In this document: piece after piece, positions 18,101-47,084 of the stretch
Layout: each line of letters begins with the position of its first letter
Position numbering within the stretch: the first letter of the stretch is position 1
Source: Bacilli bacterium
GTDB lineage: Bacteria > Bacillota_I > Bacilli_A > ML615J-28 > CAG-698
Reading direction: 5' to 3'
NCBI GenBank assembly: GCA_028691515.1
Contig: JAQUZE010000004.1
Location: 26,667-90,666, forward strand
Length of the DNA stretch: 64,000 bases
Notes under the pieces: model-generated
The model's input: only the letters and a program-made list of their open reading frames with translations
Database searches by the model: none
Told to the model about the DNA's origin: nothing
Made by a program: the position numbers and the translations under genes

Positions 18101-20167
18101 GGAACAATGTTATCTTCATTAATTATTAGTGACACTATTATTGATAAAATAATTGGATTAGGTGATACTGGCGGCAGTTTAGTTGTAAATTTAACAGCAA
18201 CAGATGCAAGATGGTATGACACTGAAACAGAAGATGGTGAAATAAGAAAGCTTATTAAGGCAATAAAAATTTTTATTGATGAAGAGGCTGACTTAAATGA
18301 TTCTAATTCTTTTGACATTAATAAAATTAGAACTTTAACTGATGGTTCAGTTGATCCAAGTGATGATGAAATAGGAACAATGTTATCTTCATTAATTATT
18401 AGTGACACTATTATTGATAAAATAATTGGATTAGGTGATACTGGCGGCAGTTTAGTTGTAAATTTAACAGCAACAGATGCAAGATGGTATGACACTGAAA
18501 CAGAAGATGGTGAAATAAGAAAGCTTATTAAGGCAATAAAAATTTTTATTGATGAAGAGGCTGACTTAAATGATTCTAATTCTTTTGACATTAATAAAAT
18601 TAGAACTTTAACTGATGGTTCAGTTGATCCAAGTGATGATGAAATAGGAACAATGTTATCTTCATTAATTATTAGTGACACTATTATAGATAAAATAATT
18701 GATTTAGGTGATACTAGTGGCACTTTAATTGTTAATTTATCAGTAAATGATCCTAGATGGTATGATACTGAAACAGAAGACGGTGAAATAAGAAAATTAA
18801 TTAAAGCGTTAAAAGTATTAATTGGTGAAGAAGAGGACATTAATAATCCAAGCTCGATAGATGTTAATACAATTAAGACCTTATCAGATGGTTCTATTGA
18901 TCCAAACGATGATGAAATAGGAACAATGTTATCTTCATTAATTATTAGTGACACTATTATTGATAAAATAATTGGATTAGGTGATACTGGCGGCAGTTTA
19001 GTTGTAAATTTAACAGCAACAGATGCAAGATGGTATGACACTGAAACAGAAGATGGTGAAATTAGAAGATTAATTAAAACTTTAAAATTATTGATTGGAG
19101 AAACAGGAGATCTAAATGATCCTTCTGTAATTGACATTGATGAAATAATTAGCTTGGATGAAACAGCAATGAATACTTTAGTGACTTCAATTATTATTGT
19201 AGATACAGCTGTTAATTCGATTGAAGATTTAACTTCCTCAACTGGTTCACTTAATAACATATTAATTGTTCCTGATGATTTAACAAATGAGGATTACTAT
19301 GGAATTAATGGGGAATTGAAAAGGTTCTTAACTGCTGTAAAAACTATTAGAGGTGCAGGAACTTTAGAAAACACAACCTTTAATGTTGATAAATTTTTGG
19401 GAGAAGACCAAGAAACACTTCTTAATTCTAGAATTATTGAAGCATCAGCAATTAGTTATATTTTATCTTCAGATAAATTATTGATTCCAGATAGTGTAAC
19501 ACCATATTATTATTTGTCTAATGAAGATATAGTTTGGGAGAGAACTTATTCTGGAGAAACTTTAGAAGATATTGGAGAATTAAGAAGATTCTTATCAGGA
19601 GTTAAAACTCTTGTTGGCGTAAATACATTTGCTGACTTGGCATTTGATATGAATACAATGTTAGCTATTGATTTTACTGATGTTGTTAAATCAAGAGTAC
19701 TAGAAGCTACAATAACTGATATGGTTACTGAATTAATCGAGACAGGACCTTTAAATGGTTTAATTAAACAACCTAGTAATAATTATCAATGGTATTATCA
19801 TGAAACAAGTAATGACGTAAATGTTGGTCTTATTAGAAGGGGCGAATTTGAATTAACAAATAGCCCAACTTATCAATATTCTGATTTACTTGGATTCTTG
19901 AATGCAATTCAACAAATGGATTCAGTTGGTTTGAATTTTAATTCTGTTGATATGAATACTATTGCAGCAATAAATTCTACAGATTTAGCAACTGCATTTT
20001 GGGATTATTCAAGAATTACTAGAGGTTCAGTTGCAACAATATTGAATTACGTATTAAAAGATGTTAATCATCCATTAAAACCAACATTTACTGATTCACA
20101 GTTTAGTGATAAACAAGATGTAATTGATGGATTAGATATATTTAAATACTTTGTTTCTTTAATGTAA
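15122..20167 (+). CDS. giant membrane-anchored acidic repeat protein with N-terminal CvpA-like (colicin V production family) transmembrane domain
   Basis: The 1681-aa ORF is uninterrupted. The N-terminal ~200 aa has four or more TM helices resembling CvpA (MDIPNVESLFLYFNIAMVVFLVLGALFGFLKGFFKS). The remainder is highly acidic. It consists of repeated ~91-aa modules, each with a W(Y)D...GE(I/V)R(K/R)L(I/V)K core. Confidence 0.7.
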   Translation: MDIPNVESLFLYFNIAMVVFLVLGALFGFLKGFFKSTYNLAVFVGLLIIGIIISPIFVKIILNFDISSVVDVDYDGVIITSLSASITPIAEKIMPELAGKVVPGTEMYELVYQLMVTISRLIFIIVWYFLTISIFKFISWIVYLIIRPRKKNRKKKTLNSRLLGMGIGFVHVVVVMFIISIPMGGITSLAASAQNLIPSNDEGDLAFFEEETPLIDLASGDSDELMTLMIDFSKKLSKDYRKTVIGGISGFIKIDGEGLDERFFSSLFSVKYNKQNIRLTSELKKGLSIYSLIEEKIDEEISIQEVLSLDEETLNYIIDTIKELKIINIIPPVGLEFAYLTGELDMITQEDYQAILTEIKAVNFSNDISSIADVGVKAGKLGLLEKQETDYYLNLDVDKVKELFIGIGSLELLDAIDSFAFDLLLNMPEVNDALINANIDPEEINLSNVSLGDEVTNLGNIYEAFVEMKIAYNDETQTVNLELVSDDSINLFSTAIYESLLFSQNINVLTNILIEQLPAEYRDVLTIDIIEQNDFVSILSLGVILIKTNILSEEFDFTDLFGEETMDKIATHISNSHLLADNINGVLDIILTEADLPFKIDIPEDLTWYGDTGKTELKALLGSARQLFELGIAEENFVENLNSTNIEELSDVMDDSVILMHNMNNLLDFVIGESGINDTVTITIRDIDWESTEGKEEFRNILGSVALIFEAKLLDNPNLAELSDGTIDTNEDGVINEDDDNIINDLAKKLSSSIIIKDNLSSIIDQLVTTEIPDLEFETFTDPDDWTETELDSIFRSVKIIITKENIPEDLFALSENEIDTVLSSRLIGQIFVKTIEKEAEIGGSLHGLLIVQRAEGNWYDQYLGEVRVDGELRKLVKSAKILLGDNPNFDDPDNILDINAILDLTDAKLDELTNSIVLKDSISNQIIDLGNEEIIVVSIPQFDNRWNDEIPNFIKGIKTIVGEEVDLDNLNIDVNNIKNLTDGTVDPSDDEIGTMLSSLIISDTIIDKIIGLGDTGGSLVVNLTATDARWYDTETEDGEIRKLIKAIKIFIDEEADLNDSNSFDINKIRTLTDGSVDPSDDEIGTMLSSLIISDTIIDKIIGLGDTGGSLVVNLTATDARWYDTETEDGEIRKLIKAIKIFIDEEADLNDSNSFDINKIRTLTDGSVDPSDDEIGTMLSSLIISDTIIDKIIDLGDTSGTLIVNLSVNDPRWYDTETEDGEIRKLIKALKVLIGEEEDINNPSSIDVNTIKTLSDGSIDPNDDEIGTMLSSLIISDTIIDKIIGLGDTGGSLVVNLTATDARWYDTETEDGEIRRLIKTLKLLIGETGDLNDPSVIDIDEIISLDETAMNTLVTSIIIVDTAVNSIEDLTSSTGSLNNILIVPDDLTNEDYYGINGELKRFLTAVKTIRGAGTLENTTFNVDKFLGEDQETLLNSRIIEASAISYILSSDKLLIPDSVTPYYYLSNEDIVWERTYSGETLEDIGELRRFLSGVKTLVGVNTFADLAFDMNTMLAIDFTDVVKSRVLEATITDMVTELIETGPLNGLIKQPSNNYQWYYHETSNDVNVGLIRRGEFELTNSPTYQYSDLLGFLNAIQQMDSVGLNFNSVDMNTIAAINSTDLATAFWDYSRITRGSVATILNYVLKDVNHPLKPTFTDSQFSDKQDVIDGLDIFKYFVSLM
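17795..19159 (+). repeat. tandem array of 273-bp (91-codon) coding repeats inside the giant gene; 4 high-identity copies at 18068, 18341, 18614, 18887 plus a diverged leading copy
   Basis: Starts are spaced exactly 273 bp apart. Copies 1 and 2 are near-identical at nucleotide level over the full unit (DG(T/S)VDPSDDEIGTMLSSLIISDTIIDKIIGLGDTGGSLVVNLTATDARWYDTETEDGEIRKLIKAIKIFIDEEADLNDSNSFDINKIRTLT). Copies 3 and 4 share the first half. Confidence 0.85.
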
Positions 20168-27490: not shown

Positions 27491-30400
27491 ATGAAAAGAA
27501 TAACAAAATATTTACTTATTTTTGTTTTCGTTTTATCAGTCTTTACTTTGGCTGCTTGTGGCAAAGTAAAAGTTACTGATATTACTATTGAGAATCCTGC
27601 AATTTCATTAGAAGAAGAAGCTACAGAGCAAATCGTTTATACGGTATTGCCTGAAGATGCAACTGATAAAACAGTTACATTTGCTTCTGCAAATCCTGAA
27701 ATTGCAACTGTTAGTGAGACAGGTTTAGTTACTGGTGTTGCTGCCGGTGATACAAAAATTACTGTTACTTCTGGTAAAATTGAAAAAGAAGTTGATGTAA
27801 CAGTTGTTGAAAAAGGCCCTGAACCTTTAACTATTTCTGCGGCTTTAGCCCTTGATGATCTAGCAGATGTTACTTTAAAAGGACAAGTAATTGGTATCCA
27901 AGGTACACAAGCATGGTTAGCTGATACTGAAGCTGGTATTTCTTTATATAATGTACCAGAAGCAGATTTAGCTAAAATCGTTGTTGGTAATGTTATAGTT
28001 GTTACTGGAAAACGTGCTGATTATTCAGGCACAAAGCAAATTGGTGATATAACTGAAATTAAGGTTGTTGAAACTGATAAACCTGCAATAGCATCTATTA
28101 ATCTTGCTGATTTGTCTGAAACTAAGTTAAATGAATCTAATCAAAGATTAATTAAAGGTAGTTTTGAAATAACACAAGTTCCTACAACAATTGAATATAA
28201 TGAAGATGGCTCATTAAAGAACCATTTAACTTATAAAATGACTGACGGAACTAATGAAGTAATTTTTTATGTGAAAAAATATTTATCTGCTGCTGCTGTT
28301 ACTTCAATGAAAACTGTTTTAGACAGTATTGAATTAGGTGGAAAAATTACATTTGATAAGGCTGTTGTTGGCTGGTATAAATCAGTTCCTCAAGTTTTAG
28401 TTATAAATGAGACAGTATTATCATATGAAGCTCCAACTATTGTTGAAGTTACTGGTGTAGAAGTAACAAATAAAACTGTTAAAGTTGATCAAGAATCAAC
28501 AGAACAGATAATTTATGAAGTTTTACCTGCAAATGCAACAGATAAGACTGTTACATTTACTTCTGCTGATGATACTATTGCTACAGTTAGTGAAACAGGT
28601 TTGATTACAGGTGTTGCTGTTGGTGAAACAACTATTTCTGTAAAAGCAAAAACATTTGAACAAATCGTTACTGTAACTGTAACAGAAAAACCTCTTACAA
28701 TAGCTGAAGTATTAGCTGTTGATGATGAAACTGAAGTTTTATTTAAAGGTCAAGTTATTGGTATTCAAGGAACACAAGCATGGTTAGCTGATGGAGAAGC
28801 AGGTGTGTCTTTATATTCAATACCAAGCGAACACATGGATAAAATCGTTGTTGGTAATGTTATTGTAGTTGCTGGGCAACGTTCTGATTATTCAGGAACA
28901 AAACAAATATCAAGTATTACATCAATTGAAGTTCGAGAAACTGGACAATCACAACTTGATTCAATTGATCTTGCAGATTTGGAAGCAGATACTTTAAATA
29001 ATACTCTTCAACAATTAATAGGAGGCAGCTTTGAAGTTACTGCTGTTCCTAATGCTGTAGAATATAATGAAGATGGTTCTTTAAAAAATCATTTAACTTA
29101 TAAAATAAGTGATGGAACTAATGAAGTTGTTTTCTATGTTAAAAAATATTTATCTATAGAAGCTGTTACATCAATGAAAGATGTATTAGATTCTATCGAA
29201 TTAGGTGGAACACTTACTTTTGATAATGCTGTTGTTGGTTGGTATAAATCAGTACCGCAAGTATTGGTTATTAATGAAACATCAATTAGTTTTGTTGCTC
29301 CTGCTGATCCTACTAGTGTGGTTATAACAAATGTTGACGAATTTGTAATTAATGTTCCTAAACAACTAGAAGCAATCGCTATTCCAGTTGGAAAAGTTGT
29401 TAATTACGAATGGTCAGTAGATAATGAAGCTATAGCAACTATTTCAGAATCTGGGGAGCTTACATTTATTGCACCTGGTGAAGTTGTTGTTACAGTTAAA
29501 ATTGTAGAATTTCCTACATTGACTGCATCTAAAACATTTACTCTTGTAGCACCAGATCCAACAGATATTACTATTGAAGGAGATTCAAAAGTAATTATTC
29601 ATGAGGGACAAACTTATCAGTATATTGCTACAGTTAATCCAGCTGGCGCATTACAAACAGTAACTTGGTCTGTTAATGATGTTACTAAAGCTACTGTTGA
29701 TGAATTTGGAGTTTTAACTCCAATTGCTGAAGGCTCTGTACAACTTACTGCCACTTCAACAATTAATGAAGCAATAACAAGAATAAAATTTGTTCAAATA
29801 GAAAATTATATTGAACCTAATGTTGTTATTGAAGGCTCACCAATGGTTTCTGTAGGAATTCCTACACCATTTAAAGCTACTGTAGAATCAAATTTTTTAA
29901 GTAAAAAAGTTGTTTGGTCAATTAGTGATGAAACTATTGCAACTATTTCTGAAGATGGAATATTAACAGGATTAGTTGAAGGTACAGTTACGGTTACTGC
30001 AACTTCTGAAGATGATCCTCTAGTAAAGAGTACATTCGAAGTAGAAGTTATTGTAATTTCACATGCTAATATTGTAATTGATGCAACAATTAATGACGAA
30101 ACACCATTTGAATTAACTTATGATGAAGTAGTTTATTATAAAGGAATTAATGCATTTGCAGAATTTTCTGATGCAGCTGCTTTAATTCAAGATGGAGCTA
30201 TTATTTATGTATTACCTGGTGAATACATTAAAAAAGCATCATTTAATGCTAGTAATATTCAAATTATTGGACCTAATGCAGGTATAAATCCTGTAACTGA
30301 TTTAGGATCAAGAACTGATGAAGCTAATGTACAAGCTGAATTATCTTTTGGAACTAAAACTAATAAATTAAGCAATGTTGTTATAGATGGTCTTAAATTT

Positions 30401-33400
30401 ACTGGATCTGGTTATATTTATGCTCCTTATGGAATAGATGATTTAACTGTACAAAACGTATGGTTTACTGCTCCAAATATTGACGCAGCGAAAGGTATGA
30501 TTTATGCTGCTGCTCCAACAATTGATGTTACAAGTAAAAATATTATTGTTCAAAATTCAGTGTTGGATGATAGTAATTTCTTAGGATATCGTGGTATTAG
30601 ATTAAATAATACTGAAAATATTACTATTATAGATAATTATTTCTATCAATTCTATGATGCAATTAGATTAGAATGTACAGGTAATGGTGGCTTTAATGTT
30701 GCTCCTAATGGTATTGGGGCTGCTGGAACTGTATTAATTTCAGGAAATGAATTTGATATGAATCGTCAGTATCCAATCATTCTTACTGTAGTAAGTGCAA
30801 CAAAAGTAGATGTTATTCACAATACAGTTTTGACAGATGTTGCTTTTGGAGGATCATGGGGACAAGTTTATATGTCTAATATCGTTCCAACAGATGGAGT
30901 TAAAACTGTTATAAATATTAAATATAATACATTTGAGAATTTTAATAATTATCATTCTGTAAGAATTAAATCTAACGGTCTTACTGCTGAAAATCTTGAA
31001 TATAATGTTAATTTTAATAAATGGTTAGCACAAAATAATATATATGAAGAAGCTGGTGAAATGGTTCATGAATCATATGTTTATTGTTCAATGGCTGAAG
31101 GAGATGTTGATTTAGTTACAAATGCGGCAAACAATTATTTTGCAGTAGCACCTGAAGCTATCGACTTTACAAATGTAAATACATTTGAACCTTACTTTAC
31201 AGATCTTGAAGCGTTTGAATATGCAAAAGGTGTAGACTTAGGCGAAATTGATCCCCTTGAATTACATTTATTCTTAGAAAGCAATCAAATTCAAGCTGGA
31301 AAGACAGCTCAATTAACATCTAATCTTGAGGGAACTACTTATGTTTCAAGCAATACAGATGTTGCAACAATCGATGCTTCTGGATTAATAACAGGAGTAA
31401 CTGAAGGAGAAGCAGTAATCACTGCTACAAATGGTGAAAAAACCGCAACTGTTACTGTAACAATTATTATGGGATACGATCCTTTAAATATGATGGTTGA
31501 TCCAGCTTGGGCAACTGAAGTTGAAGGAACAATGATAACTGTTAATGAACTTGAATATATAGTTGGATTGAACGGTTTTGCAACATTAGCTGATGCTGTT
31601 GAAAATGCAATTGATAATTCAACAATCTTAGTTATGGCTGGAGAATATGATGGAGGATTTGACATTGTTAAATCTGGTGTTTCAATTATTGCACCTAATG
31701 CTGAGACAAATCCAGTACTTGATGAAACTCCTTTCTTAAAAGCATCTGAAACTGCAGTACATATTAATACTGAATTTTATGTAAACGCAAGTAATGTTAC
31801 TATTAAAGGAATTTCTATGACTGGTGATGTTAGACTTCGTGGATTTACACAAATTTCTAATTTCCATTTTGAAAACAATTATGTATATGAAACATACGCA
31901 GCAACAGTAGCATGGAAAGAATTAACATATGGTATTGATTCTTCAAGTACTGGAGAGGTTACTCCTGGAGTTATTAATTTTGCTGGAAATTATACATGGG
32001 CACAAAATTTTGAATTTATTAATAACAAATTTTATAATGTTGATGATACAAATGTGTTCTTAGGATTCGCTGATAGCGCTACATTTATTGGCAATCATTT
32101 TGAAGGGTTTGGCAGAGATGCTGTACGTTTTGACTACGGACAAAACAAAGGAGTATTTGTATTAGATAACAATGAATTTATCAATGGTAAATTAAATGCT
32201 ATTTTCTTTAGAGGCTATACATCTTCAATTGCACCTGGAGAAATTAGTGTAACAGTATCAAATAATACATTTGATTCAGTTGGATTAAATCCTGATGAAA
32301 TTGTTACAACAAGTATTGCATTTGCTGGATTAGCAATTAGAAACCATCAAGAAAAAGCTGATGCAGTGTTTAATATATTTAAAAATGATTTTGTAGATTG
32401 TCCTGTAGCATTATCATTAAGAAATAATTATGCTTCAAGTATGCCTTATGAACTTGAAATATATGTTTCTTATAACTCATTTATTAATGAAGTAGCTCCA
32501 GCTTTCTATCATAAAAATCAATTTGGGGGAGATAGTAATACTTCAAATCCTGCTGATGCAGTATTTAAACACAACTATTATGGGTCAAGTGAAACTGTAG
32601 CTGTTGTTCCAACAGCAAGTCAATTTAATAATGCTGTTGTTGAACATGAAAATGATTTTGCAACATACGCAGATTTAGCAGCTGAAAGACCTAATGTAGA
32701 ATTATATGGAAAACTGATAACTTCATTAGAAATTACAAAATATGATGGAGTTGATTGGAGTGGTTTATTAGTAGTTTTAGATCCAGATGGAGACAAAGGA
32801 GCATATTGGTATAATATTATCTTACGTGAAACTACTACTGAAGGATTGTATGAAATAGTAGCAATTGGCGTTGGCGCAGTATTTAATGCTGAAACTGATG
32901 ACTACTGTATTGGTATACATGACGAAAATCCTCTTTATTCAAGCTTTGTAGCAAGTGGCCTAGAAGTTGGACATATAGTTACTTTCCCAGGAACTGATTT
33001 ATCAACTTTATCTCCTGGTGCGATTTCTGTAATGGCGAATTTCTATGGTGAAGTTGCTGAAGATTTACCACCTGTTTTAGAATTAACAATTGAAAATACC
33101 GAAATTGAAGCTGGAACAAACGGACAACTAGTTGCCAATATTGAGGGAACAACTTATGAATCAAGTGATATTTCTATTGCTACAGTTGATGAGTTTGGAG
33201 TTGTTACTGGAATCAGTTCAGGAGAAGTTACTATTACTGCAACTAATGGGGAACAAACAGCGACTATTACAATAACTATTTTTGAAGTAATTGTTCCTTT
33301 AAATTTATTAGTTGATCCTGCTATGGTTTTAGCTAATGATGAAGTATTTACTTTTGACGGAATTGAATACAAAGTGGGAGAAACTGCTTTTGCATTGTTA

Positions 33401-34921
33401 AGTGATGCTTTAGCCATTTTAAATGAAGGTTATACAATAACATTAAGAGAAGGTCTTTATGATCAAGCATTTGCAATTTCTTTAAATGATGTTACTCTTA
33501 AGGGAGCTGTTAATGAAACAGCTATAATAACAAATAAAGTTACTATTTCAGGAGCAAATGGTTTAACAATTTCTAATTTAGCTTTTACTGAGTTAGGTCA
33601 AATATATGGAACTGGAGCATTAGATAATTTTACATTTGAAAACAATAATGTTTATGCTAGTACAATAGTTGCAAGTGCTTTTTCTCCAAATAATAGAGTA
33701 GATGTAAATGCATTTATTCAATTATATAGCGGGACTGGATCAAATTTATTAGGTAATGTTACTATTGCAAATAATGTATTTGATGGGATGTCTTCAGATA
33801 TTATTAATCTTGATCGTACTTCTATTGGTAAAGAAATTAATATTTTAGATAATCAATTTAGAAATTTTGCTATTGGCGCAATTAGATTTGATGGTGGATA
33901 TAATAATGGTACTTATAATATTTTAAAAAATATATTTGTTAATGATGAATTAGGTGCTTTTGCTGGAATAGTATTTAGAGCTTATAGTGCAAGTGCTGAC
34001 CAAACACAAGTAATTAATATTGAAGAAAATTTATTTATGAATATTGGTGATTTAAGCTATGATGACGAGAATGATGAATCATATCCTCGTACTGCTGTTA
34101 TTACTACTTCAACATTCAATGACAAAAATGTTACTATGAATATTTTGAATAATGAGTTTGTAAATAATATAAACGATCTTCATTTACGTAATTCTGGAGC
34201 ATTAGCTACTAACTGGTTAACTACAATAAATTATAATGAGTTCAGAGGAACTCAAGGATATGTTTATTACGAAACAGTTGACTTAGCTGATTTGAATCAT
34301 AATTATTTTGAAGATACAGTAGGCAATCCAATTACTGATCCAACAATTTTAGCTACTTTAATTAAAACTAACACTAATCATGCAACATTAAAAGAAAAAG
34401 CGGTTGTTGAAGCAGGGAATTTATTCTTCTCTGAATATACTGAAGGTGGAAGCTATAATAAAGCAATAGAAATTTATAATAATTCTGGAAAATATGTTGA
34501 TTTGACAGGGTATATTATTGAATCTTATGCTAATGGAAAAACAACAATTGGAGCTACAATTGTATTAGAAGGAATTTTAGCAGCAGGTGACACATTTGTT
34601 ATTGCACATACTAGTGCTGCTGATGAACTTAAGAATAAAGCTGATTTACTTAGTGGTTCTCTTTCACATAATGGAGACGATGATTATTTGTTGAAGTTTG
34701 GTGATGAACTTCTTGATGCTTTTGGTCAAATTGGATTCGATCCAGGAACTGGATACGGAACAGATCCTAGTACTGCTGATATGACATGGGTTAGAAAATC
34801 TAGTATCACAACTGGTGACAAGATTTCTGATGATGTATTTGATCCAAATGTAGAATGGGTACCTACATCTTATGAAGATTTTTCTGGCTTTGGAAGTCAT
34901 ACTATTGATTCAATTGATTAA
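27491..34921 (+). CDS. giant surface lipoprotein: lipobox signal peptide, multiple Big_2 (bacterial Ig-like) domains, three right-handed parallel beta-helix (pectin-lyase-like) regions and a C-terminal lamin-tail domain (LTD)
   Basis: The signal peptide MKRITKYLLIFVFVLSVFTLAACGK carries a LAAC lipobox. Big_2-like segments are present (ATVSETGLVTGVAAGDTKITVTS and similar). NxxF(Y/F)-rich beta-helix repeats are present. The C-terminal motif FSEYTEGGSYNKAIEIYNNSGKYVDLTGY is typical of an LTD. Length is 2476 aa. Confidence 0.75.
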   Translation: MKRITKYLLIFVFVLSVFTLAACGKVKVTDITIENPAISLEEEATEQIVYTVLPEDATDKTVTFASANPEIATVSETGLVTGVAAGDTKITVTSGKIEKEVDVTVVEKGPEPLTISAALALDDLADVTLKGQVIGIQGTQAWLADTEAGISLYNVPEADLAKIVVGNVIVVTGKRADYSGTKQIGDITEIKVVETDKPAIASINLADLSETKLNESNQRLIKGSFEITQVPTTIEYNEDGSLKNHLTYKMTDGTNEVIFYVKKYLSAAAVTSMKTVLDSIELGGKITFDKAVVGWYKSVPQVLVINETVLSYEAPTIVEVTGVEVTNKTVKVDQESTEQIIYEVLPANATDKTVTFTSADDTIATVSETGLITGVAVGETTISVKAKTFEQIVTVTVTEKPLTIAEVLAVDDETEVLFKGQVIGIQGTQAWLADGEAGVSLYSIPSEHMDKIVVGNVIVVAGQRSDYSGTKQISSITSIEVRETGQSQLDSIDLADLEADTLNNTLQQLIGGSFEVTAVPNAVEYNEDGSLKNHLTYKISDGTNEVVFYVKKYLSIEAVTSMKDVLDSIELGGTLTFDNAVVGWYKSVPQVLVINETSISFVAPADPTSVVITNVDEFVINVPKQLEAIAIPVGKVVNYEWSVDNEAIATISESGELTFIAPGEVVVTVKIVEFPTLTASKTFTLVAPDPTDITIEGDSKVIIHEGQTYQYIATVNPAGALQTVTWSVNDVTKATVDEFGVLTPIAEGSVQLTATSTINEAITRIKFVQIENYIEPNVVIEGSPMVSVGIPTPFKATVESNFLSKKVVWSISDETIATISEDGILTGLVEGTVTVTATSEDDPLVKSTFEVEVIVISHANIVIDATINDETPFELTYDEVVYYKGINAFAEFSDAAALIQDGAIIYVLPGEYIKKASFNASNIQIIGPNAGINPVTDLGSRTDEANVQAELSFGTKTNKLSNVVIDGLKFTGSGYIYAPYGIDDLTVQNVWFTAPNIDAAKGMIYAAAPTIDVTSKNIIVQNSVLDDSNFLGYRGIRLNNTENITIIDNYFYQFYDAIRLECTGNGGFNVAPNGIGAAGTVLISGNEFDMNRQYPIILTVVSATKVDVIHNTVLTDVAFGGSWGQVYMSNIVPTDGVKTVINIKYNTFENFNNYHSVRIKSNGLTAENLEYNVNFNKWLAQNNIYEEAGEMVHESYVYCSMAEGDVDLVTNAANNYFAVAPEAIDFTNVNTFEPYFTDLEAFEYAKGVDLGEIDPLELHLFLESNQIQAGKTAQLTSNLEGTTYVSSNTDVATIDASGLITGVTEGEAVITATNGEKTATVTVTIIMGYDPLNMMVDPAWATEVEGTMITVNELEYIVGLNGFATLADAVENAIDNSTILVMAGEYDGGFDIVKSGVSIIAPNAETNPVLDETPFLKASETAVHINTEFYVNASNVTIKGISMTGDVRLRGFTQISNFHFENNYVYETYAATVAWKELTYGIDSSSTGEVTPGVINFAGNYTWAQNFEFINNKFYNVDDTNVFLGFADSATFIGNHFEGFGRDAVRFDYGQNKGVFVLDNNEFINGKLNAIFFRGYTSSIAPGEISVTVSNNTFDSVGLNPDEIVTTSIAFAGLAIRNHQEKADAVFNIFKNDFVDCPVALSLRNNYASSMPYELEIYVSYNSFINEVAPAFYHKNQFGGDSNTSNPADAVFKHNYYGSSETVAVVPTASQFNNAVVEHENDFATYADLAAERPNVELYGKLITSLEITKYDGVDWSGLLVVLDPDGDKGAYWYNIILRETTTEGLYEIVAIGVGAVFNAETDDYCIGIHDENPLYSSFVASGLEVGHIVTFPGTDLSTLSPGAISVMANFYGEVAEDLPPVLELTIENTEIEAGTNGQLVANIEGTTYESSDISIATVDEFGVVTGISSGEVTITATNGEQTATITITIFEVIVPLNLLVDPAMVLANDEVFTFDGIEYKVGETAFALLSDALAILNEGYTITLREGLYDQAFAISLNDVTLKGAVNETAIITNKVTISGANGLTISNLAFTELGQIYGTGALDNFTFENNNVYASTIVASAFSPNNRVDVNAFIQLYSGTGSNLLGNVTIANNVFDGMSSDIINLDRTSIGKEINILDNQFRNFAIGAIRFDGGYNNGTYNILKNIFVNDELGAFAGIVFRAYSASADQTQVINIEENLFMNIGDLSYDDENDESYPRTAVITTSTFNDKNVTMNILNNEFVNNINDLHLRNSGALATNWLTTINYNEFRGTQGYVYYETVDLADLNHNYFEDTVGNPITDPTILATLIKTNTNHATLKEKAVVEAGNLFFSEYTEGGSYNKAIEIYNNSGKYVDLTGYIIESYANGKTTIGATIVLEGILAAGDTFVIAHTSAADELKNKADLLSGSLSHNGDDDYLLKFGDELLDAFGQIGFDPGTGYGTDPSTADMTWVRKSSITTGDKISDDVFDPNVEWVPTSYEDFSGFGSHTIDSID

Positions 34922-39524: not shown

Positions 39525-40604
39525 ATGAATAAAAATGAATTAAAGTTATTAAAAAACATTTCAGAAATTGATGGTGTAAGTGGTCATGAAAAAGAAATTC
39601 GTGAGTTTATAAAAAATGAATTTCTTAATGTTGTTTCAGAAGAAAATATTTCATATGATAGACTAGGTTCTATTATTGCGAAAAAAGAAGGACTTAGTGA
39701 TGGCCCTAAAATTTTGATAACAGGACATATGGATGAAATAGGTATGATTGTTACTAAAATTACTGATGAGGGATTTATTAAATTTCAAACTATTGGTGGT
39801 TGGTGGAGTCAAGTAATGTCTAGTCAAAAGTATACTATTACAACAACTAAAGGCAAAAAAGTTAGAGCTGTTATAGGTTCACTTCCTCCACATATTTTAC
39901 AAAAAGAACAACTTGCAAAACCTGTTGATGTGAAAGATATGTTTATGGATATTGGGGTTAAAAATAGGGAAGAGGCTGAAAAGTTAGGAATTAAAATAGG
40001 AGATTCAATTACTCCGTATACAACTTTTGAACAAATGGGTAATAAGAATTATTTACTTGGCAAAGCTTGGGATGATAGAATTGGATGTGCAATTGCCATT
40101 GATGTCTTAAAAGAATTAAAAGAAGTAAAACACCCCAATATAGTATATGCAGCAGGAACTGTCCAAGAAGAGGTTGGTTGTCGAGGAGCTAAAACTGTAG
40201 CTCAAATTGTTAATCCTGATATTTCTATTGCTTTAGATACTGGAATTGCTTTTGATGTGCCTGGAACTGATGGTCATGTAAAAATAGGTGATGGTCCTGT
40301 AATGTTGGTTTATGATGGAGGATTAATTGGTCATTTAGCATTACGAGAAAAAATGATGGAAATTGCTGATGAATTAAAAATTCCTTATCAGTTAGATCAT
40401 TTGCAACGTGGGGGCACTGATGCTTCACAAATGCATCTTGTTCATGATGGTGCACCTTCAATGTCATTTATTGTAGCTACACGTTATATTCATGGACATA
40501 CTTCAGTTATCCATTATGATGATTATAAAAATGCTGTAAAAATCATTGTGGAACTTATTAAAAGACTAGATAAAGATACTGTTAATAAAATAACTTTTGA
40601 TTAA
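39525..40604 (+). CDS. M42 family glutamyl aminopeptidase (FrvX/YsdC/PepA-like)
   Basis: The metal-binding context is present (LITGHMDEIGMIVTKITDEGFI). The motifs WDDRIGCA and QEEVGCRGA are present. Length is 359 aa. Confidence 0.85.
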   Translation: MNKNELKLLKNISEIDGVSGHEKEIREFIKNEFLNVVSEENISYDRLGSIIAKKEGLSDGPKILITGHMDEIGMIVTKITDEGFIKFQTIGGWWSQVMSSQKYTITTTKGKKVRAVIGSLPPHILQKEQLAKPVDVKDMFMDIGVKNREEAEKLGIKIGDSITPYTTFEQMGNKNYLLGKAWDDRIGCAIAIDVLKELKEVKHPNIVYAAGTVQEEVGCRGAKTVAQIVNPDISIALDTGIAFDVPGTDGHVKIGDGPVMLVYDGGLIGHLALREKMMEIADELKIPYQLDHLQRGGTDASQMHLVHDGAPSMSFIVATRYIHGHTSVIHYDDYKNAVKIIVELIKRLDKDTVNKITFD

Positions 40605-40622
40605 GGATTTAAATTTTAAATT

Positions 40623-40656
40623 AAGCTGGAATATTAAATTTATTCCAGCTTTTACT
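40623..40656 (+). terminator. Rho-independent terminator after the M42 peptidase gene
   Basis: The hairpin is AAGCTGGAAT-attaaattt-ATTCCAGCTT, followed by TTT. Confidence 0.65.
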
Positions 40657-40722
40657 TAAATAATATTCAGTTTAAATATTGAAAATAGTTACTATTTGTG
40701 ATAATATATTTTAGTAATAAAT

Positions 40723-40799
40723 GCGCCTATAACTCAACTGGATAGAGTATCTGACTTCGAATCAGAAGGTTACGAGTTCGAATCTTGTTAGGCGTGCCA
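40723..40799 (+). tRNA. tRNA-Arg (anticodon UCG as read from the loop CUUCGAA)
   Basis: The 77-nt cloverleaf has acceptor GCGCCUA/UAGGCGU, D stem ACUC/GAGU, anticodon stem UCUGA/UCAGA and T arm ACGAG-UUCGAAU-CUUGU. Discriminator G and CCA are encoded. Confidence 0.75.
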
Positions 40800-40802
40800 G
40801 AT

Positions 40803-40878
40803 GGCCTGTTGGAGAAGTGGTTAACTCATAAGCCTCTCAAGCTTACATTCACGGGTTCAAGTCCCGTACAGGTCACCA
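40803..40878 (+). tRNA. tRNA-Glu (anticodon CUC as read from the loop CUCUCAA; isotype assignment tentative)
   Basis: The 76-nt cloverleaf has acceptor GGCCUGU/ACAGGUC, anticodon stem UAAGC/GCUUA and T arm ACGGG-UUCAAGU-CCCGU. A 5-nt variable loop is present. The CCA end is encoded. Confidence 0.65.
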
Positions 40879-40891
40879 TAAAACATTAATA

Positions 40892-40928
40892 CTCTGCTAT
40901 TCATAATTTGAGTAGCGGAGTTTTTATT
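40892..40928 (+). terminator. terminator after the tRNA pair
   Basis: The hairpin is CUCUGCUA-13nt-UAGCGGAG (one G-U), followed by TTTTTATTT. Confidence 0.55.
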
Positions 40929-41195
40929 TATTTCTATATAAATAAATACAATTAGAATAATTAATTTTATAATGATATTTTAATATATTAACTTAATATG
41001 TTATAAAAATTCTTAAATTGCTTGTTTATTGTATTTTTGATACAATATAGTCATAATGTAAAAATAAATAGCTTTTTAAGTATTAATTACTTGTTATAAA
41101 TGTTGTTTTGAAGTAAAATCTTTTTTAGCATTTTTTTCTTTTTAAATGATGTAGGTTATAGTTAGATGAGGCGGTTATTATGGGGTTAATTAGTA

Positions 41196-44100
41196 ATGTT
41201 AGAAGAATATTTAAAAAAAAATAGAATAACAGAAGTAAAACCAAGTGAAATTGAAAAAGTTACTAAATCATTTTTACTATTTTTTGATTTTATAAACAAG
41301 CCAGTTAATAGAAGTAATTTTATAAATACTTTAATAGGAAGAAATAATTCTTTAAAAATGAAAGATCAAACTTCTATATTCGGTTCTTTGAATGATTTAA
41401 ATTATGATGCTGTAAAAAAATATCTATTTTATTTTATTTCTCTAGATTATATTTCTATCGTTAAACATAGTAGTTATACTTTTATAGTTAAAAATAATAA
41501 AACTAAGAATTTAATAAGGGATGTAAATAACTTTGATATTAATTCATTTAAAATGCCTAATGACGAAAATAATTTTATTAATATATATATTAGAGATTTA
41601 GATAGTAAAAAATCAAATCTTATTGATGAAAAAATAGTACAAAATAATAAATTTTCAAATGTAGAGGAAATAAATTACGATAAAAAACTTTATGATATCC
41701 TTGCTAAGAAACGGAGCGACATTGCTTTGGAGCGTAATATTCCATCTTATATGGTTGTGAATAATCAAACGCTAAAGTTAATAACAGAAATAAAGCCAGT
41801 TACTGAGGAATCTATGCTAAGTATTTATGGTATGGGAAAAAAGAAATTTGATTCTTTTGGGAACCAATTTTTGAATCTTATAAAATTATACTTAATAAAA
41901 AATGAAGAAGAACAATATGTAGATTCAATGAGTGATTTAAACTATATATTTTCAGGAAAAAGGTTTATTTCAAAAAAAGAAATTGAAGAAATATATAATC
42001 TTTATAATAAAAATGAAATTAAGAAAAATCAAAATTATGATAAATATTTTGAGAATTTAAAAATACTAGAGGATTTTCGTGAATTATATAACGAGAAGTT
42101 TGTAAAACAAAAATTAATTGAAGAAAAACAGTATCTTGATTCAATTCTTGAAGTTGTTGATCCTGTGATTAAATTAGATAAAAAACAAAGAGAAGTAGTT
42201 TTAAGAGATGAAGATTATACTCTTGTGGTTGCTGGAGCTGGTTCAGGGAAAACTACAACAGTAGCCGCAAAAGTAAAATATTTAGTTGATAAGAAAAAAA
42301 CATGTCCAGAAAAGATTTTAATTGTATCCTATACTAATAAAGCAGTTGATGAATTAAAAGATAGAATTAACAAACAACTGAAAATACCTGCCATTATTTC
42401 TACTTTTCATAAGGTTGGCTATGCTCTCGTTAAGAAGACAAGAGATAATGAGCAGATAAAAGTTGCTCGTGATGCTATTACATATAATATTATTAGAGAA
42501 TATTTAAATGTTTATTTAAAAAATAAACCAGATGAATTAAGAGCTTTAATTATGTTTTTTGGTTATTATATTGATGCTCCTATTTCAGGTACAGACATAG
42601 AGAGTTTTATTAGACATTTTCAAAGAAATGATTTCACAACTTTAAAAACGAATATCAAGCAGATCACTGAGCAGTTAATTGATAATAAAGCTGCTAATAA
42701 GAGTTCTATTCAGCATGAAGTTATGCGGTCACTAGAAGAAGTTCAAATTGCAAACTTTTTATATTTAAATAGTGTAGATTATGAATACGAAGCCTCTTAT
42801 CCCTTTGTTTTAGAAGGCTCAAGTAAAATTTATACTCCTGACTTTACAATTCGTTATAAAGATAAAGTTATTTATTTAGAACATTTTGGGATTAGTCAAG
42901 ATGGTAAATGTTCACGATATACTGAATCAGAATTGGAACGATATAAAAAAAATATTAATGATAAAATATTACTACATCGCAAAAGGAACACAATTTTAAT
43001 TTATACATTTTCTACATATATTGATGGAAAAGATTTATTACAACACTTAAAAGAATTGCTAGAACAATCAGGAATTGAATTAATTCCAAGATCAGTTAGT
43101 GAAGTTTATAAAACAATAGCAAATGAAGAAAGCAATAAATATTTTAATAGGTTTGTATTTTTTGTTAAGGATTTTATTTCTTCTTTTAAAACTAATGGTT
43201 ATACTGAAAAAGATTTTGAAAAATTAATGAATAAAACTGATAATGTAAGAATTCGTTTATTTTTAAACATTTGTAAACCAATATATATGCATTATCAAAA
43301 AGAATTATATGAAAACAATTTTTTAGATTTTGAAGATATGATTAATGAATCTGCAAGATTATTAGAAAATCCAGAATTTATAAAACAAATACCTGAATTT
43401 GAATATGTTATTATTGATGAATATCAAGATATTTCGCGACAAAGATTCGACTTAACAAAAGCTCTGTCTGATTTGACAAAAGCTAAACTAATAGCAGTTG
43501 GGGATGATTGGCAATCAATTTTTGCTTTTGCTGGATCAAGAATTGATTTATTTTTAAAATTCAAGGGATTAATGGGTTATGCTGATTATTTAACTATTGA
43601 TCATACATATAGAAACGCTCAAGAAGTGATTAATATTGCTGGTGATTTTATTCAAAAAAATAGTAGTCAATTAAAGAAAAATTTAATATCACCAAAAAAT
43701 ATCGATATTCCAATAATTTTATATGAATATAACGATATTACATATAAAAATGAAATTAAAGGTTATAAGGGGATTATTATTGAAAAAGCGAAAATACTTA
43801 ATAAGATAATTAGTTCTATATCAAGACAATATGGTACAAACCAAACAATAGCTGTTTTGGGTAGGTATAATTTTGAAGAACAACAATTAACTAAGACAGA
43901 TTTATTTTATTTAGATAAAAAAGCTAATTTAAGATCAAAAAATTTTCCTAAAGTAAAACTAATTTTTTCAACAATTCATAATTCAAAAGGATTAGGGTTT
44001 GATAATGTTATTATTTTAAATGGCAGTAATGAAGTTTATGGTTTTCCGTCACAAATTGAAATGGATCCTATTTTTAAATTGGTTAAATATTATGATCAAA

Positions 44101-44573
44101 CTATTAGTTATGCTGAGGAAAGAAGGTTATTTTATGTTGCTTTGACAAGAACAAAAAATCAAGTACATATTCTTTATCCTAAAACTAAACCTTCTTCGTT
44201 TGTTTTGGAACTTGCAAATAATTATGATTTAGTAAAACATCCTTCAGATATTACTGAAAAAGCACCATTACAAGATCGTAAAGATAAATTATGTCCAATT
44301 TGTGGTTATCCTTTACAATTGAAAAAAAATAGAGCATATGGGTTTAGGTTATTTATGTGTTCTAATGAGCCAGAACTTTGTGGATATTTAACTAACAACT
44401 TAAGAAGTGGTAAAGAAAGTATATCAAAATGTACAGAGTGTATGACAGGATATTTGGTTGTTAAACATTCTATAAAAAAAGATCAATACTTTTTTGGATG
44501 TACAAATTATAGAAAAGATGGTAAAGGATGTAACAAAACAAAACCTATTGATTACAGTGATGCAAATAAATAA
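41196..44573 (+). CDS. multidomain UvrD-like SF1 helicase: N-terminal RQC-like winged helix + HRDC domain, helicase core with ~250-aa nuclease-like insertion, C-terminal topoisomerase-type zinc ribbons
   Basis: The HRDC-like segment is KLYDILAKKRSDIALERNIPSYMVVNNQTLKLITEIKPVTEESMLSIYGMGKKKFDSFGNQF. The Walker A is VVAGAGSGKTTTVAAKV. Motif II is VIIDEYQDIS. Motif III is AVGDDWQSIFAFAGS. Motif V is STIHNSKGLGFDNVIIL. Motif VI is RRLFYVALTRTKNQ. The insertion between Ia and II contains YTPDFTIRYKDKVIYLEHFG. Two Cys4 ribbons are present (CPICGYP...CSNEPELCGY and CTECMTGY...CTNYRKDGKGC). Confidence 0.8.
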   Translation: MLEEYLKKNRITEVKPSEIEKVTKSFLLFFDFINKPVNRSNFINTLIGRNNSLKMKDQTSIFGSLNDLNYDAVKKYLFYFISLDYISIVKHSSYTFIVKNNKTKNLIRDVNNFDINSFKMPNDENNFINIYIRDLDSKKSNLIDEKIVQNNKFSNVEEINYDKKLYDILAKKRSDIALERNIPSYMVVNNQTLKLITEIKPVTEESMLSIYGMGKKKFDSFGNQFLNLIKLYLIKNEEEQYVDSMSDLNYIFSGKRFISKKEIEEIYNLYNKNEIKKNQNYDKYFENLKILEDFRELYNEKFVKQKLIEEKQYLDSILEVVDPVIKLDKKQREVVLRDEDYTLVVAGAGSGKTTTVAAKVKYLVDKKKTCPEKILIVSYTNKAVDELKDRINKQLKIPAIISTFHKVGYALVKKTRDNEQIKVARDAITYNIIREYLNVYLKNKPDELRALIMFFGYYIDAPISGTDIESFIRHFQRNDFTTLKTNIKQITEQLIDNKAANKSSIQHEVMRSLEEVQIANFLYLNSVDYEYEASYPFVLEGSSKIYTPDFTIRYKDKVIYLEHFGISQDGKCSRYTESELERYKKNINDKILLHRKRNTILIYTFSTYIDGKDLLQHLKELLEQSGIELIPRSVSEVYKTIANEESNKYFNRFVFFVKDFISSFKTNGYTEKDFEKLMNKTDNVRIRLFLNICKPIYMHYQKELYENNFLDFEDMINESARLLENPEFIKQIPEFEYVIIDEYQDISRQRFDLTKALSDLTKAKLIAVGDDWQSIFAFAGSRIDLFLKFKGLMGYADYLTIDHTYRNAQEVINIAGDFIQKNSSQLKKNLISPKNIDIPIILYEYNDITYKNEIKGYKGIIIEKAKILNKIISSISRQYGTNQTIAVLGRYNFEEQQLTKTDLFYLDKKANLRSKNFPKVKLIFSTIHNSKGLGFDNVIILNGSNEVYGFPSQIEMDPIFKLVKYYDQTISYAEERRLFYVALTRTKNQVHILYPKTKPSSFVLELANNYDLVKHPSDITEKAPLQDRKDKLCPICGYPLQLKKNRAYGFRLFMCSNEPELCGYLTNNLRSGKESISKCTECMTGYLVVKHSIKKDQYFFGCTNYRKDGKGCNKTKPIDYSDANK

Positions 44574-44685
44574 TTTTAAGTTTAAATAATAAATACAATA
44601 GTTAAACTAATTCTTTTATAGATTTGACTATTTATATACATTAATATATACTTAAATTATAAGTGTTAAATTTAGGAGGTAATTT

Positions 44686-45945
44686 ATGGCTAAAATTAAA
44701 GATGTAGAAATAGTAAATTCTCATACGATTAAATTATTGTCTGACGCTAATAAAGGTGATGAAATTGATTTATTAGAAATAAGTCAAATAGATACTTCAA
44801 TAATTTTGGAAAAGATTGATGCTGAGACAGATAAAATATATAATAAAAAATTAAATGATTTAAAATTACAGATGCAATCAGATAGTAATCTAAAAATGAT
44901 TGAAGCTACAAAAAAATTAGAAGATGAGATATTGAAACTTAAGACATTGTTTGAAACCAAAGAAAAAGAAATTACTATGTCTTTAGAATCAAAATTCATT
45001 GTTGAAAAAGGGAAATTAGAAAATCAAATTGCTCTTTTAAAAAGTGAAAATGAATCATTTGAAAGTAAAAAAGAATCTGCAGTTAATGAAGTGAAAAATA
45101 AATTAGAAAATGAACTATTGCAAGTACAACAAAAGTATAGTTCACAAATTTATGAGCAGAAAGAAAAAATTTCTAATTTAGAATTAACGAAATCTCTATT
45201 AAGTATAAAGAAAATTGGAGAAAAATTAGAAGAATGGTGTAATCAAGAATATTTAACTCATGAAATAAATGGTTTTGATAATTGTACTTGGGAAAAGGAT
45301 AATATCTCTATAAAAGATGAATTTTCTTCTCGAGCCACTAAAGCTGATTATATTTTTAAAGTTTATTCAAGTAACATTAAAGATGAATCAACTCTATTAA
45401 CATCTGTTGCTTGTGAAATGAAGAGTGAAGATCCTACTTCTTTAAATAAAAAGAAAAATTCTGATCATTATGCTAAATTAGATAAAGATAGAATAAAAAA
45501 GAATTGTGAATACGCGTTATTAATTAGTGAATTAGAATGGGAAACAGATAATGATGCCCCAATTAGAAAAGTAGTGGAATATGATAAAATGTATATGGTT
45601 AGACCTCAATACTTTATTGTCTTTTTAAGTATTATTACAGCATTAGGAAAAAAATATCACGATGTTATTAATGAACATAATATTCAAAAAGAACAATTTA
45701 AAGAAACAGAAGAAATAGTAGAAGAATTTGAGAAAATGAAAAATCAAATTTTATCTCATTCTATTAGACTTTTAGAAAAACACGCAAATAGTATTATAGA
45801 CAATGCACAAAAGATTGAAGGCTTATCAAATAATATACTAGAATCTGGAAGGTTGATAATTAATACATATCTTGATCAAATTAAAAATAAAATTGAAAAT
45901 TTTAATATAACAAAAATTAATAAAAAAATTGATAAAATTATTTAA
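44686..45945 (+). CDS. coiled-coil protein with C-terminal PD-(D/E)xK-like nuclease motif (family unassigned)
   Basis: The 419-aa protein has a strong AGGAGG RBS. Residues ~40-200 are heptad-rich (KLNDLKLQMQSDSNLKMIEATKKLEDEILKLKTLFETKEKEI...). The C-terminal globular region has KADYIFKVY...(20 aa)...LTSVACEMKSED, a candidate D...ExK catalytic arrangement. No P-loop is present. Confidence 0.6.
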   Translation: MAKIKDVEIVNSHTIKLLSDANKGDEIDLLEISQIDTSIILEKIDAETDKIYNKKLNDLKLQMQSDSNLKMIEATKKLEDEILKLKTLFETKEKEITMSLESKFIVEKGKLENQIALLKSENESFESKKESAVNEVKNKLENELLQVQQKYSSQIYEQKEKISNLELTKSLLSIKKIGEKLEEWCNQEYLTHEINGFDNCTWEKDNISIKDEFSSRATKADYIFKVYSSNIKDESTLLTSVACEMKSEDPTSLNKKKNSDHYAKLDKDRIKKNCEYALLISELEWETDNDAPIRKVVEYDKMYMVRPQYFIVFLSIITALGKKYHDVINEHNIQKEQFKETEEIVEEFEKMKNQILSHSIRLLEKHANSIIDNAQKIEGLSNNILESGRLIINTYLDQIKNKIENFNITKINKKIDKII

Positions 45946-45954
45946 ACTGAAATA

Positions 45955-45988
45955 AAAAACGTGATTTAAAAATCACGTTTTTATTTAA
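45955..45988 (+). terminator. Rho-independent terminator closing the two-gene module
   Basis: The hairpin is AAAAACGTGATTT-aa-AAATCACGTTTTT, followed by ATTT. Confidence 0.75.
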
Positions 45989-46037
45989 ATTTTCAACAAT
46001 TTAATACTAATCTATGTTATAATAATTAACAAATGAG

Positions 46038-47084
46038 GTGATAGAAATGCGTAAATTTTTATATGAAATGCTTGAGACAGCATCCGTTTCTGGAAATGAA
46101 ATTAATTTACAAAAGGTTGTAATTAAATATATGAAATCAGTTAGTGATAAAATCATTACTGATCATGCAGGTGATGTTATTTGTGTAATTAATCCTGAGG
46201 CTAATTTTAAAGTTTTGCTTGCTGCCCATAGTGATGAAATAGGTCTTACTATTGTTGAAATATTAAATGATGGTAGAGCTCTATTAAAAGAAGTGGGGTC
46301 TATTAAAGCTGGAGTTTATCCTGGACAAAAAGTAAGAGTTATTACTGACAAAGGAGAAGTTTTTGGAGTTGTTGGTTTTGATCAGTTTACATTTAAAAGT
46401 GAAATTACTGACAAAAATTTAATTTTAGATATTGGCGTATATTCAAAAGATGAAGCTGAAAAAATAATTACCATTGGTGATTCAGTTATACTTGATAGTA
46501 ATTATCGCGAACTTAATGATAATATTATTAGTGCTAGAGCTCTTGATGATAAAATTGGTGTTTATTCTATTATGGAAGTTTTAAAAAAATCAAAGGATAT
46601 TAATAAAGAAATTGGTGTATATTGTGCTAGTACTGTTGGTGAAGAAACTACAAAAGCAGGGGCTACTTTTGTTAGTAATTTGGTTAAACCAAATTGTGCA
46701 ATTATTATTGATGTTACTCATGATAGTTCCATAATGTTAAATAAAGGAAATAGAGAGTTTACTATGAATGGTAAAGGCCCCGTTTTATCAATTGGCACAG
46801 TTATTAATAAAGAATTTGTAAAGAAAGCCCAAAAGGCAGCTAAGAATAAAAATGTTTCATTACAAGTTTCTACTGAAGTATATAGAACATATACTGATTT
46901 AGATAAAATATATTTTAATGAATCAGGTATTCCTAGTTTATTAATTAGTATACCTTTACGTTATATGCATTCAAGTGCTGAACTCGTAGATATGAATGAT
47001 GTTAATGATATTATTTCATTAATTACTGAAATAATTGAATTATTAAAAACAGATAGAAATTTTAATCCTTTTGAGTTGCTATAA
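46038..47084 (+). CDS. M42 family aminopeptidase (second paralog)
   Basis: The motif LLAAHSDEIGLTIVEILNDG is present. The context SARALDDKIGV is present. Length is 348 aa. The start may be the ATG at 46047. Confidence 0.8.
   Translation: MIEMRKFLYEMLETASVSGNEINLQKVVIKYMKSVSDKIITDHAGDVICVINPEANFKVLLAAHSDEIGLTIVEILNDGRALLKEVGSIKAGVYPGQKVRVITDKGEVFGVVGFDQFTFKSEITDKNLILDIGVYSKDEAEKIITIGDSVILDSNYRELNDNIISARALDDKIGVYSIMEVLKKSKDINKEIGVYCASTVGEETTKAGATFVSNLVKPNCAIIIDVTHDSSIMLNKGNREFTMNGKGPVLSIGTVINKEFVKKAQKAAKNKNVSLQVSTEVYRTYTDLDKIYFNESGIPSLLISIPLRYMHSSAELVDMNDVNDIISLITEIIELLKTDRNFNPFELL

Follow-up and report, generated by a model that had tools for sequence, protein, structure and literature searches.

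The window analysed here is a 64,000-nucleotide stretch of DNA from a Bacilli bacterium (contig JAQUZE010000004.1, GenBank assembly GCA_028691515.1), in which two neighbouring genes had been proposed to form a helicase/nuclease module of an undescribed defence type. Gene 1 (41196-44573, +), delimited from the list of open reading frames (ORFs), Pfam and a homolog alignment, encodes a UvrD-type superfamily 1 (SF1) helicase-nuclease of 1125 amino acids, and gene 2 (44686-45945, +), delimited from the ORF list, Pfam and a predicted structure, encodes a 419-amino-acid protein of the DUF2130/COG4487 family. The two are interpreted, with a probability of about 0.65, as genes that function independently and are neighbours in one species only, gene 1 being an accessory single-polypeptide nuclease-helicase and gene 2 an independent DUF2130 nuclease. 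Both ORFs, the 112-bp gap that separates them on the same strand and the strong ribosome-binding site of gene 2 (AGGAGG, 44674-44679, +, 6 nt before the ATG) were recovered as originally described; the joint module was not.

Co-occurrence and synteny

Co-occurrence was measured as adjacency, within ±10 kb where the contig allowed. For DUF2130, 80 loci were sampled, each from a different GTDB species (34-52 % identity, flanks of up to ±10 kb). The helicase sample consisted of 88 loci outside the species of the window, of which two lay on short contigs and 86 were searched to ±10 kb where possible; the 86 comprised 80 metagenomic loci (42-56 % identity) and 6 others that carry three close relatives (51-63 %). 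By the generic criterion for a multi-gene defence system, component genes should co-occur and be neighbours in unrelated genomes. Here, a helicase ortholog was found near DUF2130 in 0/80 loci, where the helicase query matched only PcrA-type genes of ~30 % identity, mostly on the opposite strand, and DUF2130 was found near the helicase family in 0/88 loci. The other two of the 88, close helicase relatives at loci L175 and L176 (61-63 % identity), had HNH and kinase genes, and RloB, as neighbours, with no DUF2130 seen; none was among the genes called downstream at L175, and the flank was almost nil at L176.

The pair was seen only in the window's species; the 8 places listed, out of 19 contigs read, have it with an identity of 99-100 %. 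The gene order there was always argS-membrane protein-M42-(tRNAs)-helicase-DUF2130-M42-amidohydrolase-HlyIII-PolC. The nearest DUF2130 relatives are at loci L178 (69 % identity) and L177 (64 %), and the downstream M42 gene (M42b) is syntenic in both, with an identity of 95 % in L178 (over a 19-residue fragment) and 80 % in L177. Nucleotide homology of these two loci to the window begins at 44616/44617, at a promoter-like site of gene 2 detected by promoter scan (TTGACT-17-TATACT, 44624-44652, +), and the TTGACT element is kept upstream of DUF2130 in both. L177 carries an unrelated gene and a hairpin upstream of DUF2130 and no helicase, and no helicase was found in the 228 bases upstream of DUF2130 in L178. 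Because synteny is retained and homology starts at the DUF2130 promoter, gene 2 appears to be the old resident and the helicase a lineage-specific arrival upstream. Within the species, every strain sampled carries the pair. As first proposed, the pair would have been a new two-gene immune system; recognizing that the data do not support such a unit spares the cloning of a wrong construct, and the interest attaches to the helicase family alone.

Domain architecture of gene 1

The product of gene 1 is a UvrD/Rep/PcrA-type SF1A helicase, as both Pfam domains score above threshold (UvrD-helicase PF00580, 159.7 bits, cut-off 23, 1.5e-46; UvrD_C PF13361, 55.2 bits, cut-off 25.6, 1e-14) and motifs I, Ia, II, III, IV, V and VI are intact, in agreement with the original prediction. 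Invariant across 16 homologs are GAGSGKT (346-353), TNKA (380-383), DEYQD (741-745), GDDWQS (769-774), YRN (805-807), the motif V block H928-G934 and TRTKN (984-988). In an alignment to PcrA (E = 2e-30), residues 326-423 correspond to PcrA 11-109 and residues 691-845 to PcrA 171-326, and the region equivalent to domain 2B is ~80 residues long, against ~235 in PcrA.

By the same alignment, an insertion of 267 amino acids (residues 424-690; 42465-43265, +) takes the place of PcrA 110-170, the ~60 residues of domain 1B. A Pfam scan of the insertion alone returned no nuclease family, and as Pfam was blind to it a fold comparison was needed. This placed the insertion in the Vsr-like PD-(D/E)xK fold, defined by a core of alpha-beta-beta-beta-alpha-beta topology in which beta2 and beta3 carry conserved acidic residues. 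The nuclease core spans residues 504-629 (42705-43082, +), and E515, P548-D549-F550, E562-H563-F564-G565, K590 and H594 are invariant in the alignment. The restriction-endonuclease-like strand pair that had been picked out from the sequence, with its PDF and EHFG residues, was confirmed as part of a predicted nuclease domain, and the structural check proposed for the nuclease motifs gave a predicted PD-(D/E)xK fold both here and in gene 2. Judged from the invariant helicase motifs and nuclease residues and from the modelled Vsr-like fold, the protein may be catalytically competent. The nuclease thereby occupies an unusual structural position, in place of SF1A domain 1B.

The N-terminal part resembles the C-terminus of RecQ (41322-41882, +; Pfam, TIGR01389), with an RQC-like winged helix (residues 43-108) and an HRDC domain (163-229). 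Of the two domains named originally, HRDC was well supported (Pfam E 8e-17 to 5e-16) and RQC stayed below its Pfam threshold (16.6 bits, cut-off 23), although C-terminal positions 422-589 of the RecQ model TIGR01389 align to residues 40-230 at 56.7 bits (cut-off 640). At the other end of the protein, two Cys4 zinc ribbons (residues 1033-1112; 44292-44531, +; identified from invariant Cys and Pfam) contain eight Cys that are invariant in the homologs (1033, 1036, 1055, 1062, 1079, 1082, 1102 and 1112). Their predicted topoisomerase-type character is less firm: Zn_ribbon_Top1 gave 27.9 bits over 2 stretches, just below the cut-off of 32, and many gene 1 homologs carry precomputed PF01396 matches.

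The position of the HRDC (and RQC-like) module varies within the family: the subfamily of the window protein has it at the N-terminus and others at the C-terminus (P0044, P0045, P0096 and P0114 were compared with the window protein), and the module is absent from many members of ~915-950 amino acids. Such differences in placement point to repeated domain shuffling, with helicase, nuclease and zinc ribbons as the unchanging core.

The combination of domains, described at first as unfamiliar, proved not to be rare in databases. A search with the insertion domain (E<=1e-10) matched at least 790 clusters at 50 % identity, which makes the architecture of gene 1 common and not unique. Among the best matches, most of the full-length proteins have ~850-1300 residues, and the domain lies in a corresponding part of the chain. 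The family is spread over Firmicutes and proteobacterial plasmids, and its members usually bear no annotation beyond 'UvrD-helicase domain-containing protein' or, in some sources, 'DNA helicase IV'. A literature search on the helicase, HRDC and zinc-ribbon architecture found nothing. Phage records with this architecture were limited to unannotated 4-8 kb 'Bacteriophage sp.' fragments.

Comparison with known helicases and defence systems

None of the curated equivalog thresholds for HelD, PcrA, UvrD, Rep, RecQ, AddA and RecB was reached by gene 1. Its best curated match is HelD (DNA helicase IV, NF008276), with which it has the SF1A motifs and the 1A/2A core in common; its score of 289.3 bits, confined to two stretches, falls short of the 543-bit cut-off, and assignment as a HelD equivalog was rejected. 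Unlike HelD, UvrD, PcrA and Rep, gene 1 has the 267-amino-acid nuclease insertion for 1B, a short 2B region, HRDC and zinc ribbons. Membership of the RecQ family was rejected on the motor, which is SF1 and not a superfamily 2 DEAH motor, and only the C-terminal accessory part of RecQ is matched by TIGR01389. Matches to AddA and RecB reached 55-77 bits against curated cut-offs of 650-860, and neither assignment was retained. Among AddA, RecB and AdnAB, AddA and RecB have a C-terminal nuclease and require partner subunits, whereas the nuclease of gene 1 is internal and the gene has no conserved partner.

Hhe has an Upf1-like SF1B core, DUF4011, DUF3320 and a C-terminal Vsr-like nuclease. HheA is like gene 1 in joining an SF1 helicase and a Vsr-type PD-(D/E)xK nuclease in one polypeptide, and both occur in defence islands. 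The core of gene 1 is instead UvrD-like SF1A, its nuclease lies inside domain 1B, and HRDC and zinc ribbons are added. With this UvrD-type core, and with no Hhe model matching the insertion alone at E<=1, gene 1 was not classed as Hhe. In Hhe, mutation of the nuclease site abolished a weak anti-T7 activity (bioRxiv 10.1101/2022.06.16.496414).

Gabija likewise uses a UvrD-type helicase working with a nuclease, and GajB models were the top PADLOC matches of gene 1, at up to 157 bits. GajB differs in having no embedded nuclease, HRDC or zinc ribbons. Classification as Gabija was rejected: the GajB matches extend over nothing but the generic UvrD core, a GajA partner (OLD/TOPRIM ATPase) is absent, and the flanking genes are M42 peptidases. 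A Lamassu-type or SMC-like coiled-coil ATPase system was also rejected for the pair, gene 2 having no ATPase family or PADLOC match. The insertion also matches the C-terminal ~120 residues of PDC-S68 models (1e-13) and PDC-S69 (3e-6). In PDC-S68, however, the nuclease is at the C-terminus of a ~1200-amino-acid protein and the match is limited to the nuclease domain; PDC-S68 and PDC-S69 were absent from the best PADLOC matches of full-length gene 1. No family-specific or full-length model for gene 1 was found in PADLOC-DB v2.0.0. By analogy, gene 1 would be closest in logic to Hhe, Nhi and AddAB, and it is closest in sequence to HelD, PcrA and UvrD.

Genomic neighbours of the helicase family

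Neighbours of the helicase were clustered over 83 loci, and multi-locus clusters and ±1 genes were annotated. The clusters included PLD-ResIII-DUF3427 type IV restriction enzymes (8 loci), HNH (6), GmrSD (4), the SLFN-type helicase PDC-S41 (4), Fic PDC-S72 (3), AAA_14 PDC-S01 (3), AspBHI/Mrr (2), McrBC (2) and a type IIG-like methyltransferase assigned without a family scan (2). At least one such cluster lay within ±4 genes in 26/81 loci, and in 20/40 of the loci with six or more neighbour ORFs; both figures are lower bounds, singleton neighbours being outside the annotation. A PADLOC scan of 138 immediate neighbours (E<=1e-20) matched 52 families, including DpdF, PsyrT and several PDC candidates. 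Homologs with 27-35 % identity, in alignments that span both insertion and ribbons, are carried by conjugative and mobilizable plasmids of unrelated phyla, where they adjoin DUF262 pairs, a GIY-YIG nuclease and AAA-ATPase/UvrD genes. The defence-type role that had been proposed for the pair is accordingly plausible for gene 1, the relatives of which lie among defence genes, and does not extend to the pair as one system.

No conserved partner gene of the helicase family was found over the 83 loci except an optional, unannotated protein of ~180-250 amino acids, which adjoins the helicase in 17/83 (e.g. L127:12507-13118, L102:6808-7428, L163:9071-9790). This ~200-amino-acid protein had no Pfam or PADLOC match and is homologous to residues 8-103, the N-terminal domain, of helicase P0025, which indicates an accessory domain that is either fused or separately encoded. 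It was rejected as a hidden partner of gene 1, having no homolog in the window's helicase or in the flanking proteins; the window lacks it.

The closest helicase relative outside the species (L081:6291-9113, 63 % identity) is followed by a different UvrD-type helicase of 940 amino acids, family-less ORFs and an HSP70-like gene. With an AspBHI/Mrr-type gene nearby, L081 may be another composite defence locus.

Features and genomic context of gene 2

Gene 2 belongs to Pfam DUF2130 (PF09903), with 140.2 bits over residues 148-413 (cut-off 26.7, 1e-40). It is laid out as an N-terminal beta domain (1-36), a coiled coil (38-196, predicted as long helices 38-136 and 144-196), a PD-(D/E)xK core (~197-323) and C-terminal helices (325-418). 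Residues D221, E244 and K246 are invariant among homologs, and the D...(D/E)xK signature on core strands of a predicted restriction-endonuclease fold places the protein in the PD-(D/E)xK superfamily. No ATPase family was matched in Pfam or NCBIfam, and a PADLOC scan gave no match. The original description of a coiled-coil nuclease free of ATPase motifs therefore stands. Its novelty does not: DUF2130/COG4487 has already been placed in the PD-(D/E)XK superfamily, with function unknown (PMC3424549). Coiled-coil length differs among DUF2130 members, and gene 2 is otherwise indistinct from its subfamily. A single-sequence search of the PDB with DUF2130 found nothing, a profile search gave only coiled-coil noise (E>0.02), and no DUF2130 homologs were found in phage records. 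One homolog is annotated as Mycoplasma genitalium MG148, and the family, a widespread one of nucleases, reaches minimal genomes.

The neighbours of DUF2130 are varied housekeeping genes (ABC ATPase, pcrA, sigma factor, aspartokinase, upp, rpiB, DegV, AddB-like) with few specific defence matches, and DUF2130 lies among housekeeping genes throughout Mollicutes-like Bacilli. A pcrA-type helicase gene was one or two genes upstream of DUF2130 in 11/80 loci, on the opposite strand in 10/11 (examples at about 2 kb upstream are L038, L043, L055, L056, L068 and L069), and an AddB-like nuclease gene was one or two genes upstream in 5/80. This proximity is a weak hint that some lineages have DUF2130 in a DNA-repair neighbourhood.

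Interpretation

Gene 1 is probably defensive, and comes from a large, widely dispersed and uncharacterised family that is usual in defence islands and on plasmids. In the mechanism envisaged, the winged-helix/HRDC module and the zinc ribbons would act as anchors that load the protein onto invading DNA, at its ends or at branched intermediates, the motor would translocate 3'->5' driven by ATP, like other UvrD-like enzymes, and the embedded nuclease would cleave the strand being processed, with a logic like that of Hhe, Nhi and AddAB. Foreign DNA would be the most likely target because the family is associated with defence islands. It is suggested tentatively, at less than even odds, that the family forms a stand-alone anti-phage or anti-plasmid system outside current defence catalogues, its nuclease degrading invading DNA during unwinding. 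If defensive, the family would be a single-gene system common among gut Firmicutes, and its architecture a structurally new way to couple unwinding with cleavage. Gene 2 would be transcribed from its own conserved promoter, apart from gene 1, and most likely acts independently of it in the host's own DNA metabolism; that it does so as a coiled-coil-mediated oligomeric nuclease is only weakly suggested.

Several observations weigh against two independent genes of which the first is defensive. The defence role of gene 1, though plausible, derives from neighbourhood association only. The gene lies here in a housekeeping region, outside any defence island, all the strains sampled carry it, and its composition is normal: the GC content of gene 1 and gene 2 is within ~1.2 standard deviations of the window genes and the GC content at third codon positions (GC3) is identical, which gives no sign of recent transfer. 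Such setting, fixation and composition also fit a domesticated repair function. A terminator scan predicted none between the two genes, and read-through co-transcription is thus possible. The DUF2130 family is, moreover, not purely housekeeping, because distant plasmid paralogs (~35 % identity, nuclease domain only) lie in defence-like clusters. On Enterobacter plasmid pAR0468_1 (L182, 1-12549) the order is helicase-DUF4391-OLD-type ATP-dependent endonuclease-DUF2130-DNA methyltransferase-DEAD helicase-DUF262, and on Lactococcus pCV56A (L181, 5527-9397) a TrlF-family AAA-like ATPase gene lies 47 bp beyond DUF2130, with an Eco57I-type enzyme near. These clusters may be genuine multi-gene systems with DUF2130 as the nuclease, and the paralogs inside them deserve study of their own.

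The main rival to a defence role of gene 1 is a repair role, in which it would be a housekeeping helicase-nuclease of repair or replication restart, a RecQ/AddAB-type substitute in a reduced genome, beside a functionally loosely related DUF2130. The RecQ-like winged-helix and HRDC module would suit such a role, as would the fixation of gene 1 at one chromosomal position, its ordinary GC and GC3, the lack of any integrase or att repeat, and the occurrence of DUF2130 near pcrA (11/80 loci) and near an AddB-like gene (5/80). It is nonetheless judged unlikely, given that close helicase relatives (51-63 % identity) lie in wholly different, defence-rich contexts, that sister species have no helicase upstream of DUF2130, and that the family occurs on plasmids of unrelated phyla and gene 1 reaches no curated equivalog threshold. 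The homologs on conjugative and mobilizable plasmids raise another reading, that gene 1 is a remnant or cargo of a mobile element (a plasmid, an integrative and conjugative element or a prophage) serving replication or maintenance of that element. Its position next to tRNA genes, a close relative within a run of small ORFs with HTH (helix-turn-helix) and NERD genes, and the short 'Bacteriophage sp.' fragments with family members are consistent with this. No integrase, att repeat or other mobile-element gene was found at the window's locus, however, the phage records are only unannotated 4-8 kb fragments, and the plasmid neighbours are defence genes and not replication modules, which makes the reading improbable.

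Very improbable is the two-gene immunity system itself, in which the helicase would be the sensor or motor and DUF2130 would serve as effector or scaffold. It is largely refuted by the lack of co-occurrence beyond the species, in 80 DUF2130 and 88 helicase loci; promoter and M42b synteny persist without a helicase in the nearest DUF2130 relatives, and gene 2 has its own promoter-like site, a strong ribosome-binding site and no PADLOC match. What speaks for it is the arrangement in the window, with both genes on one strand, 112 bp apart, no terminator between them and one after gene 2, together with the fixation of the pair in all sampled strains, the conserved nuclease motifs in both proteins, and the distant DUF2130 paralogs in defence-like clusters with helicases (e.g. 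OLD endonuclease-DUF2130-methyltransferase-DEAD helicase).

Locus features and strain variation

The upstream border of the helicase insertion site is a tRNA pair, 40723-40878, comprising tRNA-Arg(TCG) (40723-40799, +) and tRNA-Glu(CTC) (40803-40878, +), identified with ARAGORN and Rfam, and followed by a terminator at 40891-40921 (terminator scan). The intergenic region 40879-41195 has a GC content of 0.19, in a source metagenome-assembled genome of ~27 % GC. A bidirectional intrinsic terminator lies downstream of gene 2 (45955-45982, +; terminator scan), and with it the tRNA genes, the AT-rich intergenic region and the terminator named in the original prediction were all found. Peptidase_M42 genes flank the pair on both sides. 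An Rfam scan of 40500-46200 (E<=0.1) returned the two tRNAs only, with no riboswitch or leader, and when integration scars, as direct or inverted copies of the tRNA 3' ends, were sought over 40600-46100, AT-rich chance repeats were all that came up; no tRNA-derived direct repeats flank the pair.

Strains differ at the 5' end of the helicase gene (41180-41221, +; comparison of loci L087-L094). The ancestral start is the ATG at 41180, preceded by GAGG, and in an alignment of 16 the helicase homologs begin MG(L/F/I). A poly-A tract at 41213-41221 has nine residues (A9) in the window and six other strains and eight (A8) in others. In A8 strains the ORF runs from ATG 41180, reads MGLISKVRRIFKKNRITEV... 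(MGLISK...) and is called as 1130 amino acids. In the A9 haplotype the frame from ATG 41180 ends after 14 codons and the ORF begins at ATG 41196, a codon present only in that haplotype and made by an A->T change private to it. The difference could alter the expression level of the helicase, and its pattern looks like two lineages and not rapid phase variation.

Elsewhere in the window are two giant ORFs. The one at 15122-20167 (1681 amino acids) is essentially without a Pfam match, and that at 27491-34921 (2476 amino acids), with six Big_2 immunoglobulin-like repeats and a lamin-tail domain, is probably a surface adhesin. Antisense ORFs at 40225-40467 (-, 80 amino acids), in M42, and 44784-44999 (-, 71 amino acids), in DUF2130, are probably due to chance in AT-rich DNA.

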